A stretch of 64,000 bases of DNA from contig CAZMEQ010000001.1 of the NCBI GenBank assembly GCA_964565345.1, positions 9,838 to 73,837 on the forward strand, read 5' to 3'. Each line of letters starts with the position of its first letter. The first letter of the stretch is position 1. The notes beneath the pieces were generated by a model. The model made no database searches. It was not told where the DNA came from and was given only the letters and a program-made list of their open reading frames with translations. Positions 2,454 through 49,331 of the stretch are shown in pieces. The translations under genes and the position numbers were made by a program. This DNA is from an uncultured Gammaproteobacteria bacterium. GTDB lineage: Bacteria > Patescibacteriota > Patescibacteriia > UBA11705 > JABHMO01.

Positions 2454-2479
2454 AATTAGATAAATTTCTTTGTTTTTAC

Positions 2480-2508
2480 TTGATTTATATCAAAAAACAT
2501 GCTATAAT
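2480..2508 (+). promoter_or_regulatory. sigma70-like promoter driving the GC-rich gene 2566..3072
   Basis: TTGATT at 2480-2485, 17-bp spacer, TATAAT at 2503-2508 with an upstream TGC (extended -10, TGCTATAAT). It lies in low-GC DNA directly abutting the high-GC ORF. Confidence 0.5.
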
Positions 2509-2565
2509 ATAATGTTCGGAGTTGAATTCCGATCGATCAATCCAATTCAAGAAGGAGGTGTTCTC

Positions 2566-3072
2566 ATGAAACGCATGATGCGTTCGATCCTGGTTCTCGT
2601 TCTGGCGGTGGTGTTCTGCAGCGGCTGCGACTTCATCATGGTAGACCCGTACTCCTGCACCTACGACGAGCAGTGTGGCGACGGTCACTACTGTGATCTG
2701 GACAGCTACACCTGCTTCCTCGTCGCCTGGGAGTTCGGTGGCCCCAACTGGTGTTTCGAGGATTCCCAGTGCGGTCCCGGCTACGTCTGCAACCCTGCCG
2801 ACAATTTCTGCTACGAGGAGGGGAACGTAGGGTACCATCCGGAGGATCAGAACTACTTTACTGGGTGGGATGAGAGCACTGGGCAGTGCAAGAACCAGTC
2901 GCACTGTCGCCCCAACGAAATCTGCGCCAACGGCTGGTGCACGCTTCCGGCAGGTAGCCACAACGGCAACGAGCCGGGCTACTACGACAACGATGGCCGG
3001 TGCCAGGACCACACGCAGTGCGCCAGCGACGAGGTCTGCGCCAACGGTTGGTGCACCGAGGCGCATTGGTAG
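2566..3072 (+). CDS. secreted cysteine-rich repeat protein (signal peptide; four C-x5-6-C-x5-C-x5-6-C modules, two ending CANGWCT); high-GC island 1
   Basis: RBS GAAGGAGGTG lies 6 nt before ATG 2566. The N-terminus is MKRMMRSILVLVLAVVFCSGC. Repeats include CKNQSHCRPNEICANGWCT and CQDHTQCASDEVCANGWCT. G+C is far above the flanks, and the antisense shadow ORFs are typical of a high-GC gene. Confidence 0.7.
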   Translation: MKRMMRSILVLVLAVVFCSGCDFIMVDPYSCTYDEQCGDGHYCDLDSYTCFLVAWEFGGPNWCFEDSQCGPGYVCNPADNFCYEEGNVGYHPEDQNYFTGWDESTGQCKNQSHCRPNEICANGWCTLPAGSHNGNEPGYYDNDGRCQDHTQCASDEVCANGWCTEAHW

Positions 3073-3080
3073 ACAACAAA

Positions 3081-4746: not shown

Positions 4747-6087
4747 TTATGAAGAATAATGTTTTTTATACTTGTTCTTGCAATGACGGCACAGTGCTAT
4801 GTATTGTTTGTCTCCCACCAAAATTTTTCCATCTAGTTGTTGTCTAGCGTTATTATCTAGCCAGCTCTTATTAGCTGTTTGACTCCCACATTCTACGCAA
4901 ACGGCTAGTTCTTTAGTTACAAATTCTGCTTCCACCATCAAAGCCGGTACTGGTCCAAAACCTTCATCGTCAAAAGTTTGATCTAAGCCGACAACAATAA
5001 CCCGCAACTTATAATCTTCAGCCAATCTTTTGCAAACTTGGACCAGGGAAAAATGGCAGAAATGTGCTTCTTCAATCACGACTGTAGTAACTTTTGGGTT
5101 ATATTGTTCGATATATTGGAGTATTAAGCTAGGTTGATCTTTGGGGAACTCAATGGCCGAAAAAACTTTGCCATTGCGGCTAACTAATTTCCCGGCAGTA
5201 TTAATATTCGCACCGGTTTCAGAAATAGTAATTTCTCGTTTTGATTCCTGTGGAGTAAAGATTAAAACTTCACGATTTTTTGACAAAAGTTCTTTTTCAA
5301 TTCTTTTGGCCGCTTCAGTGCTTTTGCCAGAAAACATACAGCCGCAAATAACTTCTATCCAACCTTCTTTGTTGGTTTCCATGATAGGTGGTTTTACATT
5401 TAAGAGTTGTTCTACTTCTTTCCAAACAGCGTTTTGTATTTCTTCACGAGTCATAATGCTATTGTTTCTGGTACATTCAATAAGCTTAAAGTTTGGATAA
5501 CTGGCAATTTCTAAATATGTTTGTTCGGCTCGTCTTAGGTGTTCAATATCTTCTTCATGAATGTCTTTTGTTTTGCCTTTCCAATCTTCGCGATGTCGTT
5601 CTTGGGCTAATTGTTGTGCGATATGCGAATCAACATGCAAAATGATATTCAAATCTGGCTGCGGAATTTTAAAAAGATTATATTCTAAATCGTAAAGCCA
5701 GTCGAAAAAGACTTTGCGTTCTTCGCTGTCATGGAGCTTTGCGCCTTGATGTCCCATGTTGGCTGAAACATAGCGATTGCTTACAACTATTTTACCTTCT
5801 TCGAGCCAGCGGCGTATTTTAAAGCTGGCATCATAACGGTCGCAAGCATAAAAGATTGAAGATATTTTGGGGTTGACTTGATCAGCTGTGCCATATTTGC
5901 CACTCAAGTATTCTTCCACTAATCCTGCCGATTTTGTATTGTATTGAGGGAAATCAGCGATTTCTACAGCAAAACCACGTTGCTTTAGGTTTTCTAAAAG
6001 TAGCGAGAACTGGGTTGTTTTTCCAGAACCGTCTGTCCCATCAATAACAATAAATTTTCCAGGCAAGTTTTGCATAAATTTATTCAT
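4747..6087 (-). CDS. fused thymidylate kinase (N-terminal) / thymidine kinase (C-terminal) bifunctional protein
   Basis: N-terminal half has FIVIDGTDGSGKTT, a P-loop and a CDRY motif (Tmk). C-terminal half has ICGCMFSGKSTE, VIEEAHF, GLDQTFDDEGF and a terminal C-x2-C...C-x2-C zinc ribbon (type II Tdk). Confidence 0.8.
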   Translation of the reverse strand: MNKFMQNLPGKFIVIDGTDGSGKTTQFSLLLENLKQRGFAVEIADFPQYNTKSAGLVEEYLSGKYGTADQVNPKISSIFYACDRYDASFKIRRWLEEGKIVVSNRYVSANMGHQGAKLHDSEERKVFFDWLYDLEYNLFKIPQPDLNIILHVDSHIAQQLAQERHREDWKGKTKDIHEEDIEHLRRAEQTYLEIASYPNFKLIECTRNNSIMTREEIQNAVWKEVEQLLNVKPPIMETNKEGWIEVICGCMFSGKSTEAAKRIEKELLSKNREVLIFTPQESKREITISETGANINTAGKLVSRNGKVFSAIEFPKDQPSLILQYIEQYNPKVTTVVIEEAHFCHFSLVQVCKRLAEDYKLRVIVVGLDQTFDDEGFGPVPALMVEAEFVTKELAVCVECGSQTANKSWLDNNARQQLDGKILVGDKQYIALCRHCKNKYKKHYSS

Positions 6088-7066
6088 TTATAATCCCTTT
6101 GGTAAAAGGAACCTCCTTGTGGATTAGCTCGATAATTTTTAGCGTGAATGGATTGTTTATTTTACTCAGTTCAAAAAAACCTTGCAAATCAAGATCAAGC
6201 AACGCGGTTTGTTTAACACCTAGAGGGAGTACATAGTGATTATGGGTTTTTTCAAAGTGTGCTTTAATACGATCTAGAATTTTTATCACTTCAGGATAAT
6301 GTTTTGTTTCGTTAAGCCTATTGCTAGTGTCTTTTAAATTTTGGAAATTTGGTTGTCGAATAATCAGGCTGAATTTCCCCGTTGTAAAAAGGGGAATAAG
6401 ATCAAAAAGAGCAGTTTTTATTTTTAGAGTGCAAAAGGGTTTAGTGAAAATTATTTTTGGTATTTTGTAGGCTGTTTCTCGTTGGCAAATTTGTTCAATA
6501 TAATTTTCTTTTTGCTCCAATGTCATTAAGTCTATCTTTTCTGATATTTTCGCTATTGTTTCTGATTTAGATTGTAAGAGATGGTAAAATATTATTTTGT
6601 TTTCTATGGAGTGATCGAGATCAATTAGATTTATATCTCCAGAGCTGTCCATCTGAGGTGTAACCGAGTTGCTAATTGGTTCATTCTTATGTTTTATTGT
6701 CGTTGATTCCAAAATAATTTTCTCGGCTATGTTTTTTAGTTCATAGCTATTACTGTGCGACCACTTATGTACTAGCTGTAACCAATCTCCGGTAGGAATA
6801 AGAAATTCTAGCTGTACTAATCGGCCTAATGGGACTAGCTCAGGTAAATTAAATTGTTGGGCACTTCTTAATAATAAGTCAGTTAACTCAAAATATTTTT
6901 GTCTATCGGAAAAATTATCATCGACATAACAATCATTTCTTTCTAGGTACCAAAATTTCAAAAGCGCACTATTGGTACAAATTTCAATTAAGCTCCAATA
7001 AGACAATCCTGCAATATTAACGCGGACGATATCCTCCGTAATATTTGTCACTTGGGTCTCTGGCAT
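6080..7066 (-). CDS. hypothetical protein embedded in the deoxypyrimidine operon
   Basis: 328-aa ORF with no recognisable motifs. It overlaps the downstream gene by 8 nt and lies 1 nt from the upstream gene, so it is co-transcribed. Confidence 0.55.
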   Translation of the reverse strand: MPETQVTNITEDIVRVNIAGLSYWSLIEICTNSALLKFWYLERNDCYVDDNFSDRQKYFELTDLLLRSAQQFNLPELVPLGRLVQLEFLIPTGDWLQLVHKWSHSNSYELKNIAEKIILESTTIKHKNEPISNSVTPQMDSSGDINLIDLDHSIENKIIFYHLLQSKSETIAKISEKIDLMTLEQKENYIEQICQRETAYKIPKIIFTKPFCTLKIKTALFDLIPLFTTGKFSLIIRQPNFQNLKDTSNRLNETKHYPEVIKILDRIKAHFEKTHNHYVLPLGVKQTALLDLDLQGFFELSKINNPFTLKIIELIHKEVPFTKGIINE

Positions 7067-7067
7067 A

Positions 7068-7622
7068 TTACGCTTGGAGTTCTGTTAAAAGAGTTTCTAG
7101 CTGTTGGTAGAGTTCTTCTTTGGTGCCGTCGTTATTAATTTTAGTCTCAGCCTCGGCTACTACTTGGGGGATTGTTATTTCTGTCTCTTTTGTTTGGTCC
7201 AATTTGAATTGTTCAAAAGTTTTGTTTTTATCGTCCGGATTTTCGCTGCGTTCGATGATGCGATTGTAGCGCTTCATTTCGTCGGCATAGATGTGAATTA
7301 GGTGAAAATTGGGTAGGGTTTTTAAGTATTTAATATCAGCCACTCTTCTTATGCCATCCACACAAACAATTTCGTTGGTGTCGTTTTCAACATCTTTTGT
7401 AATAACTTTAGCAAAAAGATCTTCACCAAAATTTTGGCGTAGAACAGTGGATAGATTCTGCATGTTTTCTCGTGCTTGCGGCAAGTATAACCGATCCAAA
7501 ATATCGCGCATGATAGTGGAGAATTTATAATAACCGGCACCGTATTTTTCAATAAAGTAATCGCAGGCTGTCCCTTTGCCGCTGGCGATTTCACCAACAA
7601 ATCCAATGATTAATTTTTTCAT
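7068..7622 (-). CDS. P-loop nucleoside-monophosphate kinase-like protein (AMP/CMP/dNMP kinase superfamily)
   Basis: IIGFVGEIASGKGT Walker A of the adenylate-kinase type (GKGT). 184 aa. Sits between the dCMP-deaminase-like and tmk-tdk genes. Confidence 0.5.
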   Translation of the reverse strand: MKKLIIGFVGEIASGKGTACDYFIEKYGAGYYKFSTIMRDILDRLYLPQARENMQNLSTVLRQNFGEDLFAKVITKDVENDTNEIVCVDGIRRVADIKYLKTLPNFHLIHIYADEMKRYNRIIERSENPDDKNKTFEQFKLDQTKETEITIPQVVAEAETKINNDGTKEELYQQLETLLTELQA

Positions 7623-7625
7623 AGT

Positions 7626-8096
7626 TTATCTTTTAAAAAGTTCCCAAGCTTTTTCTACTAAGTAGACATTTTTTATACCACCTTTGATCATCGCGTTCCA
7701 GCAAGACTTACAGCACCACCAATGTCCATACATGTAAACATCAGCGCCTTCAGTTTTTATTTTATTTTTTTTAGCCTCGGCCATTAATCTCGATTCAGAA
7801 TGTTGTTTTGATGTCGCACAGCCAGGACATAACCAATACCCCTTGCCACTGGGAACTTTTAAAATTCGTCGCGCACAATATTTGCTGTGTAGTTTAATCA
7901 GTTTGGGATTAATCAGTTTGGACATGTTCGAAGCGCGGGCGACTATTTGGCCATCTTTAACCATAACTATCCCAATGGGATTTTTGGCGTCAGTGGATGC
8001 GGCCTGCATTTTTTTTGCTTCTAACATGAATTGGTTCTCGGCTGGTACATAGAGTATTTCTCGATCGGCGGGTAAATATGGGTAGGGGATGGTCAT
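7626..8096 (-). CDS. dCMP/cytidine deaminase-family zinc enzyme
   Basis: H-S-E (QHSESRLMAEA) followed about 30 aa later by WCCKSCWNAMIKGGI, matching the H(A)E ... PCxxC zinc-ligand pattern of ComEB/dCMP deaminases. Confidence 0.7.
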   Translation of the reverse strand: MTIPYPYLPADREILYVPAENQFMLEAKKMQAASTDAKNPIGIVMVKDGQIVARASNMSKLINPKLIKLHSKYCARRILKVPSGKGYWLCPGCATSKQHSESRLMAEAKKNKIKTEGADVYMYGHWWCCKSCWNAMIKGGIKNVYLVEKAWELFKR

Positions 8097-8098
8097 AG

Positions 8099-8776
8099 TC
8101 AGATTTTTAATTTAAATTGAGTTTTGAGTTCATCAATTTTACCGGCTTTGATTAAGTCTACCTCTTCATTTGCATCAATTTTCGCTTCTAGACCATATGG
8201 AGTAGATCCAATATATTTTCCAGTTTGTTTTCCGTGTGCCTTAGCTTCTTCTTCGCTTAATTCACTGGCTAATTCAAATAATTGGAGCTGGCAAATTCTT
8301 TCACCCGGATAAATTTTGATGATGTGATTACTGTTGTTTACGACTGGAATGGTAAGCTGGCCACTGTAACGGCAATCAACTACGCCAGTGTTTATTTGTA
8401 ATCCGCGGCGGAGTGCTGAACTTCTGGGGAAAAGATTGCCGGCGATTCGGCCTGTATTTAAGGTTATTTTCTCTAAGGTCGAAATAATTATTGTTTCCTT
8501 GGGAAGTATTTCAAAAAATTGACCTGGTTTTAATTTTATTAACTTGAAGTATTCTTCTACGTTTTGGTAATCCAAATAGTCAGCAATTACCGCTAAGCGT
8601 CCTTTGTCGTTATATTTCCAGGTGTCAGGGATATAAAAACTCCAACCCACGCGTAAATCAATGGAATTCGGTTGCAATTGATATTCATCAAGTTCAGGCG
8701 TAAAGACTAGGGCCCCGCTGGAAATTAAATTTTGCATTTCTTTTTTCGTCAGTACCATAGGATTATTGTTAGTCAA
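8099..8776 (-). CDS. dcd: dCTP deaminase/dUTPase-superfamily protein
   Basis: QPNSIDLRVG and PRSSALRRGLQINTGVVDCRYSG motifs match Dcd/dUTPase family signatures. Confidence 0.75.
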   Translation of the reverse strand: MTNNNPMVLTKKEMQNLISSGALVFTPELDEYQLQPNSIDLRVGWSFYIPDTWKYNDKGRLAVIADYLDYQNVEEYFKLIKLKPGQFFEILPKETIIISTLEKITLNTGRIAGNLFPRSSALRRGLQINTGVVDCRYSGQLTIPVVNNSNHIIKIYPGERICQLQLFELASELSEEEAKAHGKQTGKYIGSTPYGLEAKIDANEEVDLIKAGKIDELKTQFKLKI

Positions 8777-8783
8777 ATTTAGA

Positions 8784-9296
8784 TTATTGAATGATTTTAT
8801 AGCGTAGATTTATAACGTTTTGTCCTAGGTCTCTGGTTTCTAACAGTTCAAGTTTAATATTAAGGTCTAAATCTTTAAAGAGTGTTAACCCGCCGCCAAA
8901 AAGAATCGGTTCCACTGTTATTTGTAATTCATTGACTAAGCCGGCTTGTAAGAATAGGGAATTAATAGTCGTCCCGCCACCGAGTATAACTTCTTTGTAA
9001 CCACGTTTTTCTAAGGAGCCTAGTAATTCTTGTGGTGGAAGGTTTGTGTATTCAAGTTTTTCTGGAATATTTGTTTCTAGCTCTGGCTCTTTAGTCAAGA
9101 TTATATTTAATCTGCCTGGCAGTGGTCTATTGATTGTTTTGTAGGTATTTAAACCCATTATAATAACACCGGCTTCTTTGGTACGTTGAATAAAGATTTC
9201 TTTATCCGCTGATGAGGTCCAGTCAGTTGATGTTTGATTAGAGTTTTTCGCAATAAAGCCATCTGCTGTCATTACCATCATTAAAGTAACTTTCAT
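8784..9296 (-). CDS. dihydrofolate reductase-family protein (RibD C-terminal/DHFR fold)
   Basis: MTADGFIAK ... VIIMGLNTYKTINRPLPGRLNIILT ... ILGGGTTINSLFLQAGLVNEL is the typical DHFR-family pattern. Adjacent to the ThyA homolog. Confidence 0.7.
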   Translation of the reverse strand: MKVTLMMVMTADGFIAKNSNQTSTDWTSSADKEIFIQRTKEAGVIIMGLNTYKTINRPLPGRLNIILTKEPELETNIPEKLEYTNLPPQELLGSLEKRGYKEVILGGGTTINSLFLQAGLVNELQITVEPILFGGGLTLFKDLDLNIKLELLETRDLGQNVINLRYKIIQ

Positions 9297-9300
9297 ATTT

Positions 9301-10131
9301 TTATAAAACTATTTTTAAGCCATTAATTGGACCAAGTGGTTTATATTTTGATTCTAATAGACCAGTAATTTCGTTAACTAAGGTTTCGTCGCCACGTTCG
9401 GCGCGGTCAAAATAATCAGACTGAGCTTCAAAGTGAACCGGAGGGTGATCATTGTCGCGTTCGATTAACTCCCAAGCTTGTTTGTAATGAATGTCGTATA
9501 TGTGAGCGTTGGAAATAGTATGTGTTAGTTTTCCAGGTTTAACTCCGAGTTTTCCAGCTAGTACGCAAAGCAATAAATAAAATCCCGCGACATCATGTGG
9601 GCAGCCGAGCATCATATCATTGGAACGGACAACACTATGTATATGTAATTTATTGGCGATAATATTGGCTGTCCAAGTAAAGGGGCAGGGAACGTTTTTT
9701 TTGGTTTCTGGATTACCCAAACCATCTTCGCGGGGGTCCCAAGTGATTACTACTCCATGACGTGAACCAGGGGTGCCTTGGAGATGTTGGACTAAAAGAC
9801 CCAGTTGATCCCGGCCAAAAGCATGGCGCCAACGATATCCATAAGCCGCGGGAATAGTGCCATCCTGCTCGGTAAAGTCTTGCCAAATCTTTGTGAATTT
9901 ATTTACAAAATCATCTGGATTTTTACTGCCCATGATAAACCAAATTTGTTCGGCTACAAAGAGTTTTATCGGTATTTTGCGCAAAGTTAAAAGCGGAAAG
10001 CCTTTGTCTAATTCAAAAGTTAGTCCTGGAATTATTTTGGTGTGGTGCCCGGTTCTTTCGTTGTATTCATCGAAGCCTTCATTCATTATTTTAAGAATTC
10101 CAGCTTTATAAAGTTCATCAAATTGTGTCAT
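9301..10131 (-). CDS. thyA: thymidylate synthase-family enzyme with Asp at the Asn177-equivalent specificity position; possible dCMP C5-methylase/hydroxymethylase
   Basis: Conserved blocks: FPLLTLRK, EQIWFIMG, YGYRWR, catalytic Cys in VPCPF, then R-S-N-D, PHDVAGFY and AHIY. A gapless alignment to E. coli ThyA from Cys146 to Tyr181 puts Asp at the position of Asn177, Pro at His147 and Val at Gln165. Confidence 0.85.
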   Translation of the reverse strand: MTQFDELYKAGILKIMNEGFDEYNERTGHHTKIIPGLTFELDKGFPLLTLRKIPIKLFVAEQIWFIMGSKNPDDFVNKFTKIWQDFTEQDGTIPAAYGYRWRHAFGRDQLGLLVQHLQGTPGSRHGVVITWDPREDGLGNPETKKNVPCPFTWTANIIANKLHIHSVVRSNDMMLGCPHDVAGFYLLLCVLAGKLGVKPGKLTHTISNAHIYDIHYKQAWELIERDNDHPPVHFEAQSDYFDRAERGDETLVNEITGLLESKYKPLGPINGLKIVL

Positions 10132-10240
10132 ATAGAAAATAACATTGTCTTCATTTTAACAGATAAATGGGGGGGAGGAAAGCACTTTTCTTGACAAGTT
10201 TTGCAAAAAATACCCTAGTAGGTGCATAACAAAATACCAC

Positions 10241-10268
10241 CCGGTAAAAGGGTGGTATTGGATGTATA
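10241..10268 (-). terminator. hairpin terminator after rplA
   Basis: On the minus strand: ATACCACCC ttttacc GGGTGGTAT followed by TTTTG. Confidence 0.5.
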
Positions 10269-20046: not shown

Positions 20047-20126
20047 GAAAAGCTCTTTTGAAGGCGGTTGCAGGATGTAGCCGTCTGTCTGGTTCAGTTC
20101 AAAATTCCATTGGGAGGTACCCGACC

Positions 20127-21077
20127 ATGAGGAAAAACATCCTCACCCTGTGCCTGATCGTCCTGTCCCTGGCGGCCTGCTCCACGAAGGAGAAGCCCGC
20201 CGACCCCGCGCCTGTCGCGGTGGCGCCCGTGCCCGAGGTCTGCACCATGGACAAGGCCAAGGCGCAGGTCCAGTACCGGGGCTTCGATGTCGCGATCGAG
20301 GGCGACACCCTGGTCTTCACCAAGGTGCTCTCCGGCGCCGACGGCCAGCGCCTCGGTCGCGAGATGCACGAGTTCAAGGTCGAGGACGACCAGGGCCAGT
20401 GCAAGCTGACCGAGTGCGTTGCCAGCCGCGAGGTCTCGGGCGAGAAGCTCGAGAATCTGTTCTGCCAGAAGCGTTCGCGCTTCTACAAGAACGGCGCGCT
20501 GGTCTGGGAGGACACCCTCCTCAAGGACAGCCAGTGGCTGCGCAGCTACGCCGGCCTAGACAAGGTCCTGATGGACGCGCCCAACTGGGCTTCGTCCGAT
20601 GGAATGGACATCTACATGACCTGGGTCTTGCGTTCGGCCGACAAGGCTGTGCGGGTGCCGGTCTGGGGCGTCCGGGCTATCTGGATCCGGGAGGGCGACG
20701 ACTACACCCTCATGGGCGGGGAAGTCGTCCTCAAGAACCCGAAGCGCGCCCCCACACCCGAGGAGGTCGTGACCTTCCTGCGCACCAACGCGCAGGGCGA
20801 GGTCAACACGCGTGGCGTCCTGTACCCGGTCTCCGGGGAGACGTTCACGGCCTATCTCTCGTACCTCAAGGACGAGGATAAGGGCTGGGAGCGAGACCAC
20901 GCCGGCGACAGCGAGGCCATGCTGGCCCACTTCGACGGGCCGGTCAAGCTCTCGCGTGGCCAGACCTGGCCGCTGGAGCGCGTCTTCCAGCACCGCGGCA
21001 CCCAGCAGTCCCGGCTGCCCAACGTGGACCCCGGCTTCCTGCCGGGCTTCCCGCTGGTCCCCAAGCTGGGCCAGTGA
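20127..21077 (+). CDS. lipoprotein of unknown function; high-GC island 2
   Basis: RBS GGGAGGT precedes ATG 20127. The N-terminus MRKNILTLCLIVLSLAACS has a canonical lipobox (L-A-A-C). G+C is far above the flanks. The ORF track's upstream extension to 20058 is not supported. Confidence 0.7.
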   Translation: MRKNILTLCLIVLSLAACSTKEKPADPAPVAVAPVPEVCTMDKAKAQVQYRGFDVAIEGDTLVFTKVLSGADGQRLGREMHEFKVEDDQGQCKLTECVASREVSGEKLENLFCQKRSRFYKNGALVWEDTLLKDSQWLRSYAGLDKVLMDAPNWASSDGMDIYMTWVLRSADKAVRVPVWGVRAIWIREGDDYTLMGGEVVLKNPKRAPTPEEVVTFLRTNAQGEVNTRGVLYPVSGETFTAYLSYLKDEDKGWERDHAGDSEAMLAHFDGPVKLSRGQTWPLERVFQHRGTQQSRLPNVDPGFLPGFPLVPKLGQ

Positions 21078-21085
21078 CAACAACG

Positions 21086-21142
21086 CGGTTGGCGTAACCA
21101 ACCACCCCCACATCGACACGTCGGTGTGGGGGTATTTTGTTG
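21086..21142 (+). terminator. tandem GC hairpins plus T-run terminating island 2
   Basis: GGTTGG cgtaa CCAACC, then CCCCCACATCGA cacg TCGGTGTGGGGG, followed by TATTTTGTTGTT. Confidence 0.6.
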
Positions 21143-26476: not shown

Positions 26477-26504
26477 TTGACAAAAAGAGGAAAATCATTA
26501 TAAT
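26477..26504 (+). promoter_or_regulatory. sigma70-like promoter of GC-rich island 3
   Basis: TTGACA 26477-26482, 16-bp spacer, TATAAT 26499-26504. Confidence 0.5.
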
Positions 26505-26560
26505 AAATAACGCTTCCACGTAGAAGCAGGGTGTTTCAACTGTCCACTGAGGAGGAGCTA

Positions 26561-27052
26561 ATGACCGAGAAGAAGACGTGTCTGCAGGTGGAGAAGGAGA
26601 TCCGAGCGGGTCTGCCCGTCGGTTTCGCTGAGGCGGTGCGCTTCGACGTGCGCCAGTCCAAGAAGGGCTTGCGTGTCGTCGTGCCGAACCACCGGCTCGG
26701 CAAGATCGCGATCACCGCGACGTGCTTCAATGGCAACAGCGACCTCGTCGGTCGCACGATCTCCCACTTCACCCAGATCGTCCCCGAAGGAACCGTGGTC
26801 GAGGCCCCGCGCAACGTGGTGTGTGACCGGGTTCGCCGGGCGATTCGTGCCACGCTGCCGAAGGATTACGCGACCGCGGTGCGCTTCGATGTTCGTAGCG
26901 CTCGTGATGGCCTGGCCGTCATGATCCCGGCTCACCGCGCCAACGGCATCTACATCGATCGGCAGCGCTTCGAGCTGCCCGACCCCGATCGCCTCGTGAC
27001 CATGGCCGTCCGGCACATCTGCCAGTTCGTGCCCACGAACGCCACCGTCTAG
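26561..27052 (+). CDS. small protein built from two tandem ~70-aa repeats; high-GC island 3
   Basis: RBS GAGGAGGAG precedes ATG 26561. Repeat 1 is KEIRAGLPVGFAEAVRFDVRQSKKGLRVVVPNHRLGKIAI. Repeat 2 is RRAIRATLPKDYATAVRFDVRSARDGLAVMIPAHRANGIYI. No signal peptide. Far higher GC than the flanks. Confidence 0.6.
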   Translation: MTEKKTCLQVEKEIRAGLPVGFAEAVRFDVRQSKKGLRVVVPNHRLGKIAITATCFNGNSDLVGRTISHFTQIVPEGTVVEAPRNVVCDRVRRAIRATLPKDYATAVRFDVRSARDGLAVMIPAHRANGIYIDRQRFELPDPDRLVTMAVRHICQFVPTNATV

Positions 27053-27093
27053 ACACGGTGAGCTGATCTTTCTCTGACCAGACGCTGATTCAC

Positions 27094-27132
27094 GGCGCTC
27101 GTCCAATCACTTGGGCGAGCGCTAATTTTTTT
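27094..27132 (+). terminator. GC hairpin plus T-run terminating island 3
   Basis: GCGCTCG tccaatcacttggg CGAGCGC followed by TAATTTTTTT. Confidence 0.6.
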
Positions 27133-48319: not shown

Positions 48320-48360
48320 AAAAAATCTCCCCCACACCTATGCGTAGATGTGGGGGAGTT
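48320..48360. terminator. bidirectional GC hairpin (A-run / CTCCCCCACA..TGTGGGGGAG / T-run on minus)
   Basis: AAAAAAT CTCCCCCACA cctatgcgtaga TGTGGGGGAG, between convergent genes ending 48309 (+) and 48364 (-). Confidence 0.65.
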
Positions 48361-48363
48361 GCG

Positions 48364-49038
48364 TCAGTTCTTGCGCCCTCCCTTGCCCATGATCTTGAGC
48401 AGCTGGAGGAAGAGGTTGGCGATGTCGAGGTAGATCGCGACGGCGCTGTCCACCGCGTTGTCCAGGGTTCGCGGCAGCTGTACCGCGCGGTTCCAGTCGT
48501 AGATGATGTACAGGGTGAACAGCAATGCAGCCGCGTAGTCGATGAAGGGCCAGTCGTAGAGGTTGTTGCTCACTCCGAAACTGGCCGCGATGAGCTGTCC
48601 GAAGCGAACGAAGACGAGCACGGTGAGCGCACCGAACAGGTAGCCGCCCCAGCTCAGGAGGAGCGTGGGGAAGGCGACTCCGATGATGCTCATGACCACG
48701 GTCACAGCTGCGGTGGCCACGAGTGCGTTCACGACCACGGCGCTCTGGTACAGGTTGACCGTGGGGCCCATGATGGCACCCAGGCCGCAGACCACCATCA
48801 GGTAGCCCACCAGGCTCACCAGCCAGTTGTCGCTGCCCATCGCGATGAAGATGCCGATGATCGGGATGACCAGGCCCACCCCCAGCGCGGCCCAGATGTT
48901 GGGCTGCCAGGGCATGGTGAGGAAGGCGATACCGGCGGAGATAATGAGCCCCACCATCGTGAAGCCCGAGACCGCGAAGATGTACTCGCGGAGGCTGAGC
49001 TCCGAACCGATGCCTCGTTGTTCCGAACGTTCCCAAAC
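48364..49038 (-). CDS. Bax-inhibitor-1/YccA (TMBIM) family integral membrane protein; high-GC island 5
   Basis: Seven predicted TM helices and a C-terminal ...NLFLQLLKIMGKGGRKN typical of the BI-1/YccA family. The start was chosen at MVWERSEQRG; the upstream in-frame extension is possible. Very high GC. Confidence 0.65.
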   Translation of the reverse strand, partial: VWERSEQRGIGSELSLREYIFAVSGFTMVGLIISAGIAFLTMPWQPNIWAALGVGLVIPIIGIFIAMGSDNWLVSLVGYLMVVCGLGAIMGPTVNLYQSAVVVNALVATAAVTVVMSIIGVAFPTLLLSWGGYLFGALTVLVFVRFGQLIAASFGVSNNLYDWPFIDYAAALLFTLYIIYDWNRAVQLPRTLDNAVDSAVAIYLDIANLFLQLLKIMGKGGRKN

Positions 49039-49331
49039 CATGCTGGAAAGACCTATCTGACCCTCCACTTTTATAGGGAATTCATCTGTCCGAAATGGAC
49101 TTAATATTGTAATATAAAGACTAGTATTTGTCAAGGTAGGAGTTTTTATGTTTTCACCTAAAATTACACCTTATATTGACATTTTAGTCGTAATGCGCTA
49201 TACTTAAGATGTTTGTTAGGTGCTCAAAGAGTTTCCAAGGCCAAAGATCTTTAGTCTTTCGTGCGGAAGAAAGTTATTTGAGGTAAAGTGTCGACCTGCA
49301 ACATTTTATTAAAAAGACTAAGTACAGTACT

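Follow-up and report, generated by a model that had tools for sequence, protein, structure and literature searches.

A predicted phage-type dCMP methylase heads a conserved thymidylate operon in Patescibacteria

Does the ThyA-family gene in a 64-kb stretch of Patescibacteria chromosome (contig CAZMEQ010000001.1 of assembly GCA_964565345.1; the whole stretch is called the window below) encode a thymidylate synthase (TS), or an enzyme that methylates a different nucleotide? To our knowledge, all cells are considered to form thymidylate from deoxyuridine monophosphate (dUMP), with either ThyA or ThyX, and the only known ThyA homologues that methylate deoxycytidine monophosphate (dCMP) come from phages that rewrite their DNA. 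An earlier note on this DNA, made from the letters by eye, had proposed that the window protein acts on dCMP rather than dUMP. Our analysis leads us to consider it somewhat probable that the gene is a cellular member of the TS branch typified by Xanthomonas phage Xp12, that its product methylates dCMP (the chemistry of EC 2.1.1.54) and that, as lead gene of a conserved Patescibacteria thymidylate operon, it contributes to a route that would supply thymidine triphosphate (dTTP) without dUMP.

The window protein matches the Pfam family PF00303 (Thymidylat_synt) with 166 bits over residues 8-237 (cut-off 24.3), and it reaches none of the NCBIfam cut-offs for ThyA equivalogs (best 130.8 vs 327), its TIGR03284 score of 107.8 falling just under the cut-off of 108.35. 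Ungapped phmmer alignments to three solved ThyA structures pair RSNDMMLGCPHDVAGF with RSADIFLGVPFNIASY, a MAFFT alignment with E. coli ThyA (from NC_000913) gives the identical register, and direct translation of 9583-9699 (minus strand) yields KNVPCPFTWTANIIANKLHIHSVVRSNDMMLGCPHDVAG. In this register the catalytic Cys (C149, E. coli C146) and the Arg equivalent to R166 (R169) lie 20 residues apart, as in E. coli ThyA and as the earlier note had counted, and its central observation also stands, since Asp180 occupies the position of Asn177, the pyrimidine-specificity residue; alignment against ThyA and T4 gp42 likewise places Asp, not Asn, there. The remainder of the canonical uracil-selection set, His147 and Gln165, is replaced by Pro150 and Val168, again as first read. 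The full catalytic complement of Cys146, Arg166, Ser167, Asp169, Glu58, Tyr94, His207 and Tyr209 is present (C149, R169, S170, D172, E61, Y97, H210 and Y212), which includes the Cys, Arg, Asp and C-terminal H-x-Y motif that the note had listed as retained. Trp80, Arg21 and Arg126 are conserved as well, and the hydrophobic C-terminus (KIVL) is ThyA-like. Three features go beyond what had been described, namely Asn in place of Leu143, His in place of Arg127 and an insertion of 6-8 residues (DGLGxxxxK) upstream of the catalytic Cys; Trp83 is replaced by Phe and Phe176 by His179. An AlphaFold2 (AF2) model (mean local confidence, pLDDT, 85.4) has a full-length TS fold, with template-modelling (TM) scores of 0.7-0.82 to solved TS structures. 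Compared with canonical ThyA (E. coli, L. casei), the window protein thus shares the fold and the catalytic residues and differs at positions 177, 147, 165, 143, 83 and 127, in the insertion before the Cys and in its sub-cut-off NCBIfam scores.

The unusual residues are a fixed property of a large family. A scan of GTDB with one genome per species found a relative in at least 390 species, 80 of which were fetched for orthologue and linkage counts. These 80 span many lineages, among them Falkow-, Kuenen-, Magasanik-, Jackson-, Harrison-, Moran-, Doudna-, Portnoy-, Shapiro-, Davies-, Woese-, Wildermuth-, Uhr-, Nomura-, Colwell- and Vogelbacteria. Asp is found at the position equivalent to 177 in all 80 orthologues (codons GAT in 53 and GAC in 27) and Asn in none, though it is one transition away; the equivalent of position 143 is Asn in 80 of 80, that of 147 is Pro in 79 of 80, and only Val, Ile or Leu occurs at position 165. 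Asp172, the equivalent of Asp169, does not vary within the family. The same picture emerges from the 120 nearest database homologues (65-96% identity; those with a named source are all Patescibacteria), with P-H-D-[VI]-A-G-F kept in 119 and the motif pattern unmatched in the remaining one. Judged from these alignments, the Asp signature is far beyond chance and the Asp is under strict purifying selection. More widely, a HMMER library search returned 12,052 relatives, and about 148 near-full-length cluster representatives nearest the query include 101 with Cys/Pro/Asp and 19 with the canonical Cys/His/Asn. Many of the GTDB representative metagenome-assembled genomes (MAGs) that carry the operon are titled 'uncultured Gammaproteobacteria bacterium' or 'uncultured Candidatus Saccharibacteria bacterium', titles that are probably placeholders or wrong labels for these Patescibacteria.

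The closest characterised counterparts are phage proteins. A tblastn search of 50,697 phage records returned as best matches a tight group of 74 records that comprises Xanthomonas phage Xp12, Pseudomonas phage PaMx74, Mallos and phages of Achromobacter, Roseobacter, Rhodobacter and Ruegeria. The window protein is 38% identical to the TS homologue of Tedan (163 bits), 38% to that of Mallos (153 bits), 33% to that of PaMx74 (142 bits) and 36% to that of Xp12 (141 bits), compared with 28% to E. coli ThyA (95 bits) and 25% to T4 gp42 (53 bits), and by these scores the Xp12/PaMx74 group holds its nearest characterised relatives. The residues at positions 143, 147, 165 and 177 are N, P, V and D in the window protein, N, P, L and D in Xp12, and L, H, Q and N in E. 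coli, and the combination of Asp177, Pro147, Asn143 (KNVPCP) and Asp169 is the same in Xp12, PaMx74, Mallos, Tedan and the window protein. Also common to the phage group and the window protein are the motifs KN[VI]PCP and P-[YH]-D, a hydrophobic residue at 165, a DGxG insertion of 6-8 residues before the Cys and an AAYGYRWRxxFGRDQL block. The phage enzymes, 33-38% identical, differ in keeping Arg127 (His in the window protein), in having Tyr rather than His at position 176 and in ending in EV[IV]E rather than KIVL.

The window gene also differs from these phage genes in being chromosomal and cellular. The window is part of a Patescibacteria chromosome in which rplA, rplK, nusG, secE and gyrB lie directly upstream of the operon, and gatB, miaA, ftsW, the L25 gene, prfA, prmC, lgt and rpsB are found elsewhere in the 64 kb. 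In a relative with 68% identity, the operon occupies a different chromosomal site, between rpsB-tsf-gap and gatB-pgk-eno, and has the gene order ThyA, DHFR, DCD-like, deaminase, kinase, Tmk. Origin from a prophage or mobile island was considered and rejected on account of these surroundings (rplA, rplK, nusG, secE, gyrB and gatB in the window; rpsB, tsf, gap, gatB, pgk and eno in the relative).

What an Asp at position 177 implies can be gauged from enzymes of known activity. Positions 177 and 147 are the best discriminators between TS homologues on viral contigs with modified cytosine (Asp) and on unmodified ones (Asn) (PMC8670742), and the window protein is altered at both. The Asp is common to the cytosine-specific T4 gp42, MilA and BcmA (PMC5175136); the N177D and N229D mutants of TS are dCMP methylases, as they are cited in PMC8670742 and PMC13326640; and one of the fold matches of our AF2 model is 1NJC, a dCMP-bound structure of the L. 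casei N229D mutant. In the DNA of Xp12 and PaMx74, cytosine is completely replaced by 5-methylcytosine (5mC), and the Xp12 TS homologue as well as five of seven metagenomic homologues made 5-methyldeoxycytidine in vivo (bioRxiv 10.1101/2024.12.05.627091). The claim of the earlier note that Asp at this position shifts preference to dCMP agrees with both the mutants and the Asp-bearing cytosine enzymes in this literature, and from the signature residues and the 36-38% identical characterised homologues we infer that the window enzyme is specific for dCMP.

A smaller but appreciable chance is that the protein is an ordinary TS which, Asp180 notwithstanding, methylates dUMP, perhaps through a protonated Asp that mimics Asn. 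The preservation of the remaining catalytic TS residues and of the hydrophobic KIVL terminus would fit such an enzyme, as would the best match of the fold model, which is to full-length canonical TS, and the treatment of the gene as thyA in the Patescibacteria literature. On the other hand, the Asp-bearing TS enzymes characterised in the papers cited here (T4 gp42, MilA, Xp12, the five metagenomic homologues and RB69/DLP3) all use a cytosine nucleotide, N177D or N229D switches a genuine TS to dCMP according to the same citing papers, and His147, Gln165 and Leu143, which support recognition of uracil O4, are all replaced as in Xp12. The NCBIfam scores, all below the ThyA equivalog cut-offs, also argue against an ordinary TS, as does the fact that Asn was never seen in 200 orthologues (motif unmatched in one).

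If dCMP is the substrate, which group is transferred to C5? The earlier note favoured a methyl over a hydroxymethyl group because of an adjacent gene of the dihydrofolate reductase (DHFR) family, and both the neighbour and the active site support this. The best match of the neighbour among solved structures is the T. maritima DHFR (PDB 1CZ3; E 1.4e-26, full length), and it shares 28% identity with the Xp12 DHFR (BLASTP, E 1.6e-9); by these matches it is a genuine DHFR, and in 55 of 80 species a DHFR gene lies near the TS gene. The folA genes of the Candidate Phyla Radiation (CPR), possible orthologues of the window DHFR, complement an E. coli folA deletion (PMC11974145). In a 2026 study an acidic residue at 143 marks hydroxymethylases, D169N (the RB69 gp48 type) marks 5-hydroxy-dCMP synthases, and a bulky hydrophobic residue at 143, proposed to exclude water, is tied to methyl products (PMC13326640). 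With Asn146 at the first of these positions (Asp in gp42) and Asp172 retained at the second, the published markers of hydroxymethyl and 5-hydroxy products are both absent from the window protein.

We regard it as very improbable, then, that the enzyme makes another C5 product, such as 5-hydroxymethyl-dCMP, 5-hydroxy-dCMP or a ribonucleotide, for a modification or natural-product pathway. Asp177 is indeed common to hydroxymethylases and 5-hydroxy-dCMP synthases, the window protein shares the specificity-position Asp and an RSND motif with T4 gp42 and MilA/BcmA, and its residue at 143 is polar (Asn) rather than a water-excluding bulky hydrophobic one. That residue is nevertheless non-acidic, unlike in gp42 and MilA, whose reactions yield tetrahydrofolate (THF), and D169 is kept. 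MilA and BcmA differ from the deoxy-specific enzymes in having Ala and Lys at the Ser167 and Arg126' positions (PMC5175136), where the window protein keeps the deoxyribose-type residues (S170 and Arg124). Similarity to gp42, from which a long C-terminal segment of the window protein is missing, is low at the 25% identity given above; linkage to DHFR is sensible only if dihydrofolate (DHF) is produced; and the operon holds no glycosyltransferase or other tailoring genes.

The predicted dCMP methylase gene heads seven consecutive minus-strand genes separated by gaps of no more than 7 nt (Table 1). Counting partners within 8 kb of the TS gene in the 80 species, we found a DCD-like gene in 70, a deaminase in 65, DHFR in 55, Tmk in 41, the additional kinase in 25, thymidine kinase (TK) in 6 and the orphan open reading frame (ORF) in 3. 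The first three of these recall the phage gene set of MazG/HAD, TS, dCMP deaminase and DHFR in Xp12, PaMx74 and Mallos, in which DHFR and a dCMP-deaminase-family gene stand in cis to the TS gene as they do in the window. The pyrophosphatase partner differs, being MazG or HAD in the phages and a DCD/dUTPase fold in the window, and so does the presence of Tmk and TK in the window operon. Only TS and DHFR gave BLASTP matches between the window and Xp12, PaMx74, Mallos and Tedan; the deaminase, DCD-like protein and kinase had none among the neighbours of the four phage TS genes.

Table 1. Positions of the operon genes and diagnostic codons in the window
Feature	Position	Strand	Description
ThyA-family ORF	9301..10131	minus	ATG start, 276 aa; predicted dCMP C5-methyltransferase using 5,10-methylene-THF (CH2-THF), releasing DHF
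Asp180 codon	9592..9594	minus	= E. coli Asn177, pyrimidine-specificity residue
N146-V-P-C149-P150 codons	9682..9696	minus	L143-position Asn, catalytic Cys, H147-position Pro; KNVPCP motif common to Xp12
Dihydrofolate reductase	8784..9296	minus	170 aa, T. maritima type; Pfam RibD_C 79 bits, DHFR_1 49 bits
DCD/dUTPase-fold protein	8099..8776	minus	225 aa; Pfam DCD 90 bits; TIGR02274 91.2 vs cut-off 92.8
dCMP-deaminase-family zinc deaminase	7626..8096	minus	156 aa, divergent; HxE, CxxC, extra Cys cluster; Pfam dCMP_cyt_deam_1 41 bits
P-loop nucleotide kinase, dNMP-kinase-like	7068..7622	minus	184 aa; PHROG 139 'deoxynucleoside monophosphate kinase' 79 bits
Orphan ORF	6080..7066	minus	328 aa; within operon, gaps/overlaps 1-8 nt
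Tmk-TK fusion	4747..6087	minus	446 aa, last operon gene; Pfam Thymidylate_kin residues 15-208, TK 242-436

The DCD-fold protein aligns over its full length with the M. tuberculosis DCD-DUT, and the catalytic Glu of the deaminases (E. coli E138, M. tuberculosis E129) is missing, Pro standing in its place (TIPVVN vs TLELSN). Among the 65 DCD-like orthologues with a match to the motif, this position is Pro in 62 and Ser in 3. Because the catalytic Glu is gone and the dUTPase-type D-x-x-Y-x-G motif is kept, we predict that the protein is a pyrophosphatase and not a deaminase, acting on deoxycytidine triphosphate (dCTP) to give dCMP, on deoxyuridine triphosphate (dUTP) to give dUMP, or on both. DCD-fold proteins with Pro, rarely Ser, in place of the Glu form a conserved subfamily encoded nearly always beside an Asp-type TS (in the window, in loci L010-L089 and in the metagenomic locus L090 at 9335-9973), which may represent an uncharacterised family of dCTP pyrophosphatases.

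The deaminase is very divergent. With the single sequence, a search of the Protein Data Bank (PDB) found only a TadA (E 0.006), and with a family profile it found the S. mutans dCMP deaminase (E 1.7e-9). The top eight Foldseek matches of its AF2 model (pLDDT 90.5) are all dCMP deaminases, including T4 Cd, human DCTD and the PBCV-1 dCMP/dCTP deaminase. We predict that it converts a 5-methyldeoxycytidine nucleotide into a thymidine nucleotide. Its family also has invariant extra residues (C74, R76, C90, a CPGC motif and H125-W-W-C-C before the CxxC) that are not present in the aligned solved dCMP deaminases, which suggests that it has an additional metal site and an unusual lid over the active site.

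The remaining genes are linked to the TS gene in fewer species. The P-loop kinase matches NCBIfam PRK08356 (60 bits) and PDB SSO1041 (AdkA-like; E 2.5e-12), and it resembles the kinase domain of an anti-phage dCTP deaminase. The orphan ORF has no Pfam, NCBIfam or PHROG match and is probably not a core component of the operon; its 27-residue alignment with the Xp12 HAD/MazG protein, at E 0.039 against a very small database, is put down to chance. The order Tmk-then-TK, fused in the window, recurs in 6 of the 80 related loci. In two metagenomic proteins TS(Asp) is naturally fused to a partner domain, a dCMP-deaminase domain in P0135 (L090, 8001-9302) and a MazG-type PRA-PH domain in P0177, which connects these functions with one another. 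Beside P0135 there is once more a DCD-like gene without the Glu, its motif reading IFPIQN.

Taken together with the predicted dCMP specificity, the operon can be read as a pathway of methylation followed by deamination. In a first step, the Glu-less DCD-fold enzyme would hydrolyse a pyrimidine deoxynucleoside triphosphate (dNTP), most attractively dCTP to dCMP, the role ascribed to MazG in phages; alternatively, it may keep dUTP or 5-methyl-dCTP (5mdCTP) out of DNA. The Asp-type ThyA would then methylate dCMP at C5 with CH2-THF to give 5-methyl-dCMP (5mdCMP) and DHF, and DHFR would turn DHF back into THF. The deaminase encoded in cis would convert the 5-methyldeoxycytidine nucleotide to the thymidine nucleotide, at either the mono- or the triphosphate level, and thymidine monophosphate (dTMP) would be passed on by Tmk, so that the net outcome would be dTTP from deoxycytidine nucleotides with no dUMP intermediate. 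Since 5mdCMP is a poor substrate of ordinary CMP kinases and dCMP deaminases tolerate dCMP with a substituent at C5, 5mdCMP could be a safe intermediate. That Tmk adjoins the cluster in 41 of 80 species and is fused to TK in the window indicates dTTP as the end product. The statement of the earlier note that the enzyme would make a modified dCMP rather than dTMP accordingly needs to be divided: the signature and the likeness to the Xp12 group support it for the immediate product, and it holds for that product only, since the operon also encodes a dCMP deaminase, Tmk and TK and dTMP or dTTP is probably still what the pathway delivers.

A precedent for the deamination step exists in phages. The dCMP-deaminase-family enzyme mSCD-B5, encoded next to a TS homologue, converts 5mdCTP to dTTP, which spares the phage a true thymidylate synthase (bioRxiv 10.1101/2024.12.05.627091). 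The mSCD-B5/Xp12 route and the window have in common the placement of a TS(Asp) gene beside a dCMP-deaminase-family gene and the proposed conversion of 5-methyldeoxycytidine to thymidine nucleotides. They differ in that the phage genomes are fully 5mC and the tested deaminase needs a triphosphate, whereas the window operon is a bacterial housekeeping operon whose deaminase lies on a separate, very divergent branch.

Several points weigh against methylation of dCMP. The specificity of the Patescibacteria proteins is read from sequence, and their identity to the characterised phage enzymes is only 36-38%. In principle a protonated Asp could pair with uracil, which makes use of dUMP chemically possible. 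The operon is, moreover, the textbook set of the dUMP pathway (dUTPase, dCMP deaminase, ThyA, DHFR and Tmk), and all of its genes would fit the standard Gram-positive-type route if the enzyme were an ordinary TS: a dUTPase would convert dUTP and the deaminase dCMP to dUMP, ThyA would make dTMP from it, DHFR would recycle the folate and Tmk would phosphorylate dTMP. The DCD-fold protein, with its dUTPase-type motif, may simply be a dUTPase, in which case dUMP is made and becomes a dead end if the ThyA rejects it; a tblastn search for a second dUTPase found this to be the one DCD/dUTPase-family gene in the window. The window deaminase has no detectable BLAST similarity to the deaminases of Xp12 or PaMx74. 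Residue 143 is Asn rather than the bulky hydrophobic residue of the published methyl rule, and at that position identity with Xp12 is all that speaks for a methyl product. Finally, in a neighbour-joining (NJ) tree with 100 bootstraps the Patescibacteria form a clade (99%), and the split between Asn-type and Asp-type proteins received only 48-58%, with an unreliable rooting on T4 gp42; because this split has no more than moderate support, our argument rests on the shared insertion and the signature residues and not on the tree. In favour of the dCMP route, though weakly, neither the window nor 1.1 Mb of orthologous sequence (80 loci) gave a tblastn match to ThyX or to a second ThyA; about 17 kb per genome was covered, too short a span to show that the gene is the sole thymidylate synthase.

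The presence of a counterpart for each Xp12 function (pyrophosphatase, TS(D), DHFR, deaminase and a PHROG 139 kinase) raises one further reading, in which 5mdCMP would be phosphorylated by the dNMP-kinase-like protein, dCTP would be removed by the DCD-fold enzyme, 5mdCTP would be incorporated so that 5mC replaces much or all of the chromosomal cytosine, and part of the pool would become dTTP. That the characterised phage deaminase acts on the triphosphate, which implies a pool of 5mdCTP, would agree with this, as would the lack of a tblastn match to M.HhaI, used to look for a C5 DNA methyltransferase, in 1.17 Mb (about 17 kb per genome), a very weak test. We think such a genome-wide modification unlikely, given that just 25 of 80 species have the extra kinase near the TS gene and that a canonical Tmk and TK accompany the operon. 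Reports of unusual 5mC in Patescibacteria were not found either, weak evidence given incomplete coverage of the literature, and we know of no cellular organism in which a base is replaced before replication.

As to the transcription of the operon, a terminator-like hairpin (10-bp stem and T-rich tail) lies at 10233-10259 (minus strand), immediately past rplA and within the 140 nt that separate rplA from the ThyA-like gene, and this suggests that the thymidylate operon has its own promoter. Apart from this hairpin, promoter and terminator scans were at background level. Elsewhere the window contains four sharply bounded, GC-rich islands (GC 0.59-0.68, compared with about 0.36 for the genome) at ~2560-3075, 20200-21100, 26500-27100 and 48340-49135, which are mutually dissimilar and appear coding. 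Two of their ORFs, at 2470-3072 and 20058-21077 (both plus strand), have a signal peptide and lipobox and are lipoprotein-like, and one at 48364-49134 (minus strand) encodes a membrane protein of the BI-1/YccA family whose nearest homologues are from Patescibacteria at no more than 64% identity. These islands may stem from a recent transfer, with a relative or host of high GC as donor, or from a chimeric assembly.

The enzyme type itself is already known from phages. What is new is that a large radiation of bacteria has a predicted phage-type dCMP methylase as a fixed housekeeping gene, with a DCD-fold partner instead of the MazG partner of the phages. No fewer than 390 Patescibacteria species carry the signature of the phage enzymes as a fixed trait of this operon, and databases and papers annotate the gene as thyA; searches of the literature on Patescibacteria or CPR together with thymidylate, dCMP or 5-methylcytosine found no paper noting the Asp signature, the gene being treated as an ordinary thyA. 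Read from these sequences, our results suggest that hundreds of Patescibacteria species make thymidylate via 5mdCMP or put 5mC into their DNA. If so, much of the CPR would either form dTMP in a changed order of steps, with methylation before deamination and neither dUMP nor dUTP on the way, or carry 5mC derived from the nucleotide pool, and were the genome-wide modification to prove true, these would be the first cellular organisms in which 5mC takes the place of most or all chromosomal cytosine before replication. Metabolic reconstructions of these bacteria would change, and predictions of their response to antifolates and 5-fluorouracil would be affected. The 5mC-nucleotide deaminases and pyrophosphatases would be new tools, and the distribution of the enzyme in cells would bear on the origin of the DNA-modification enzymes of phages.

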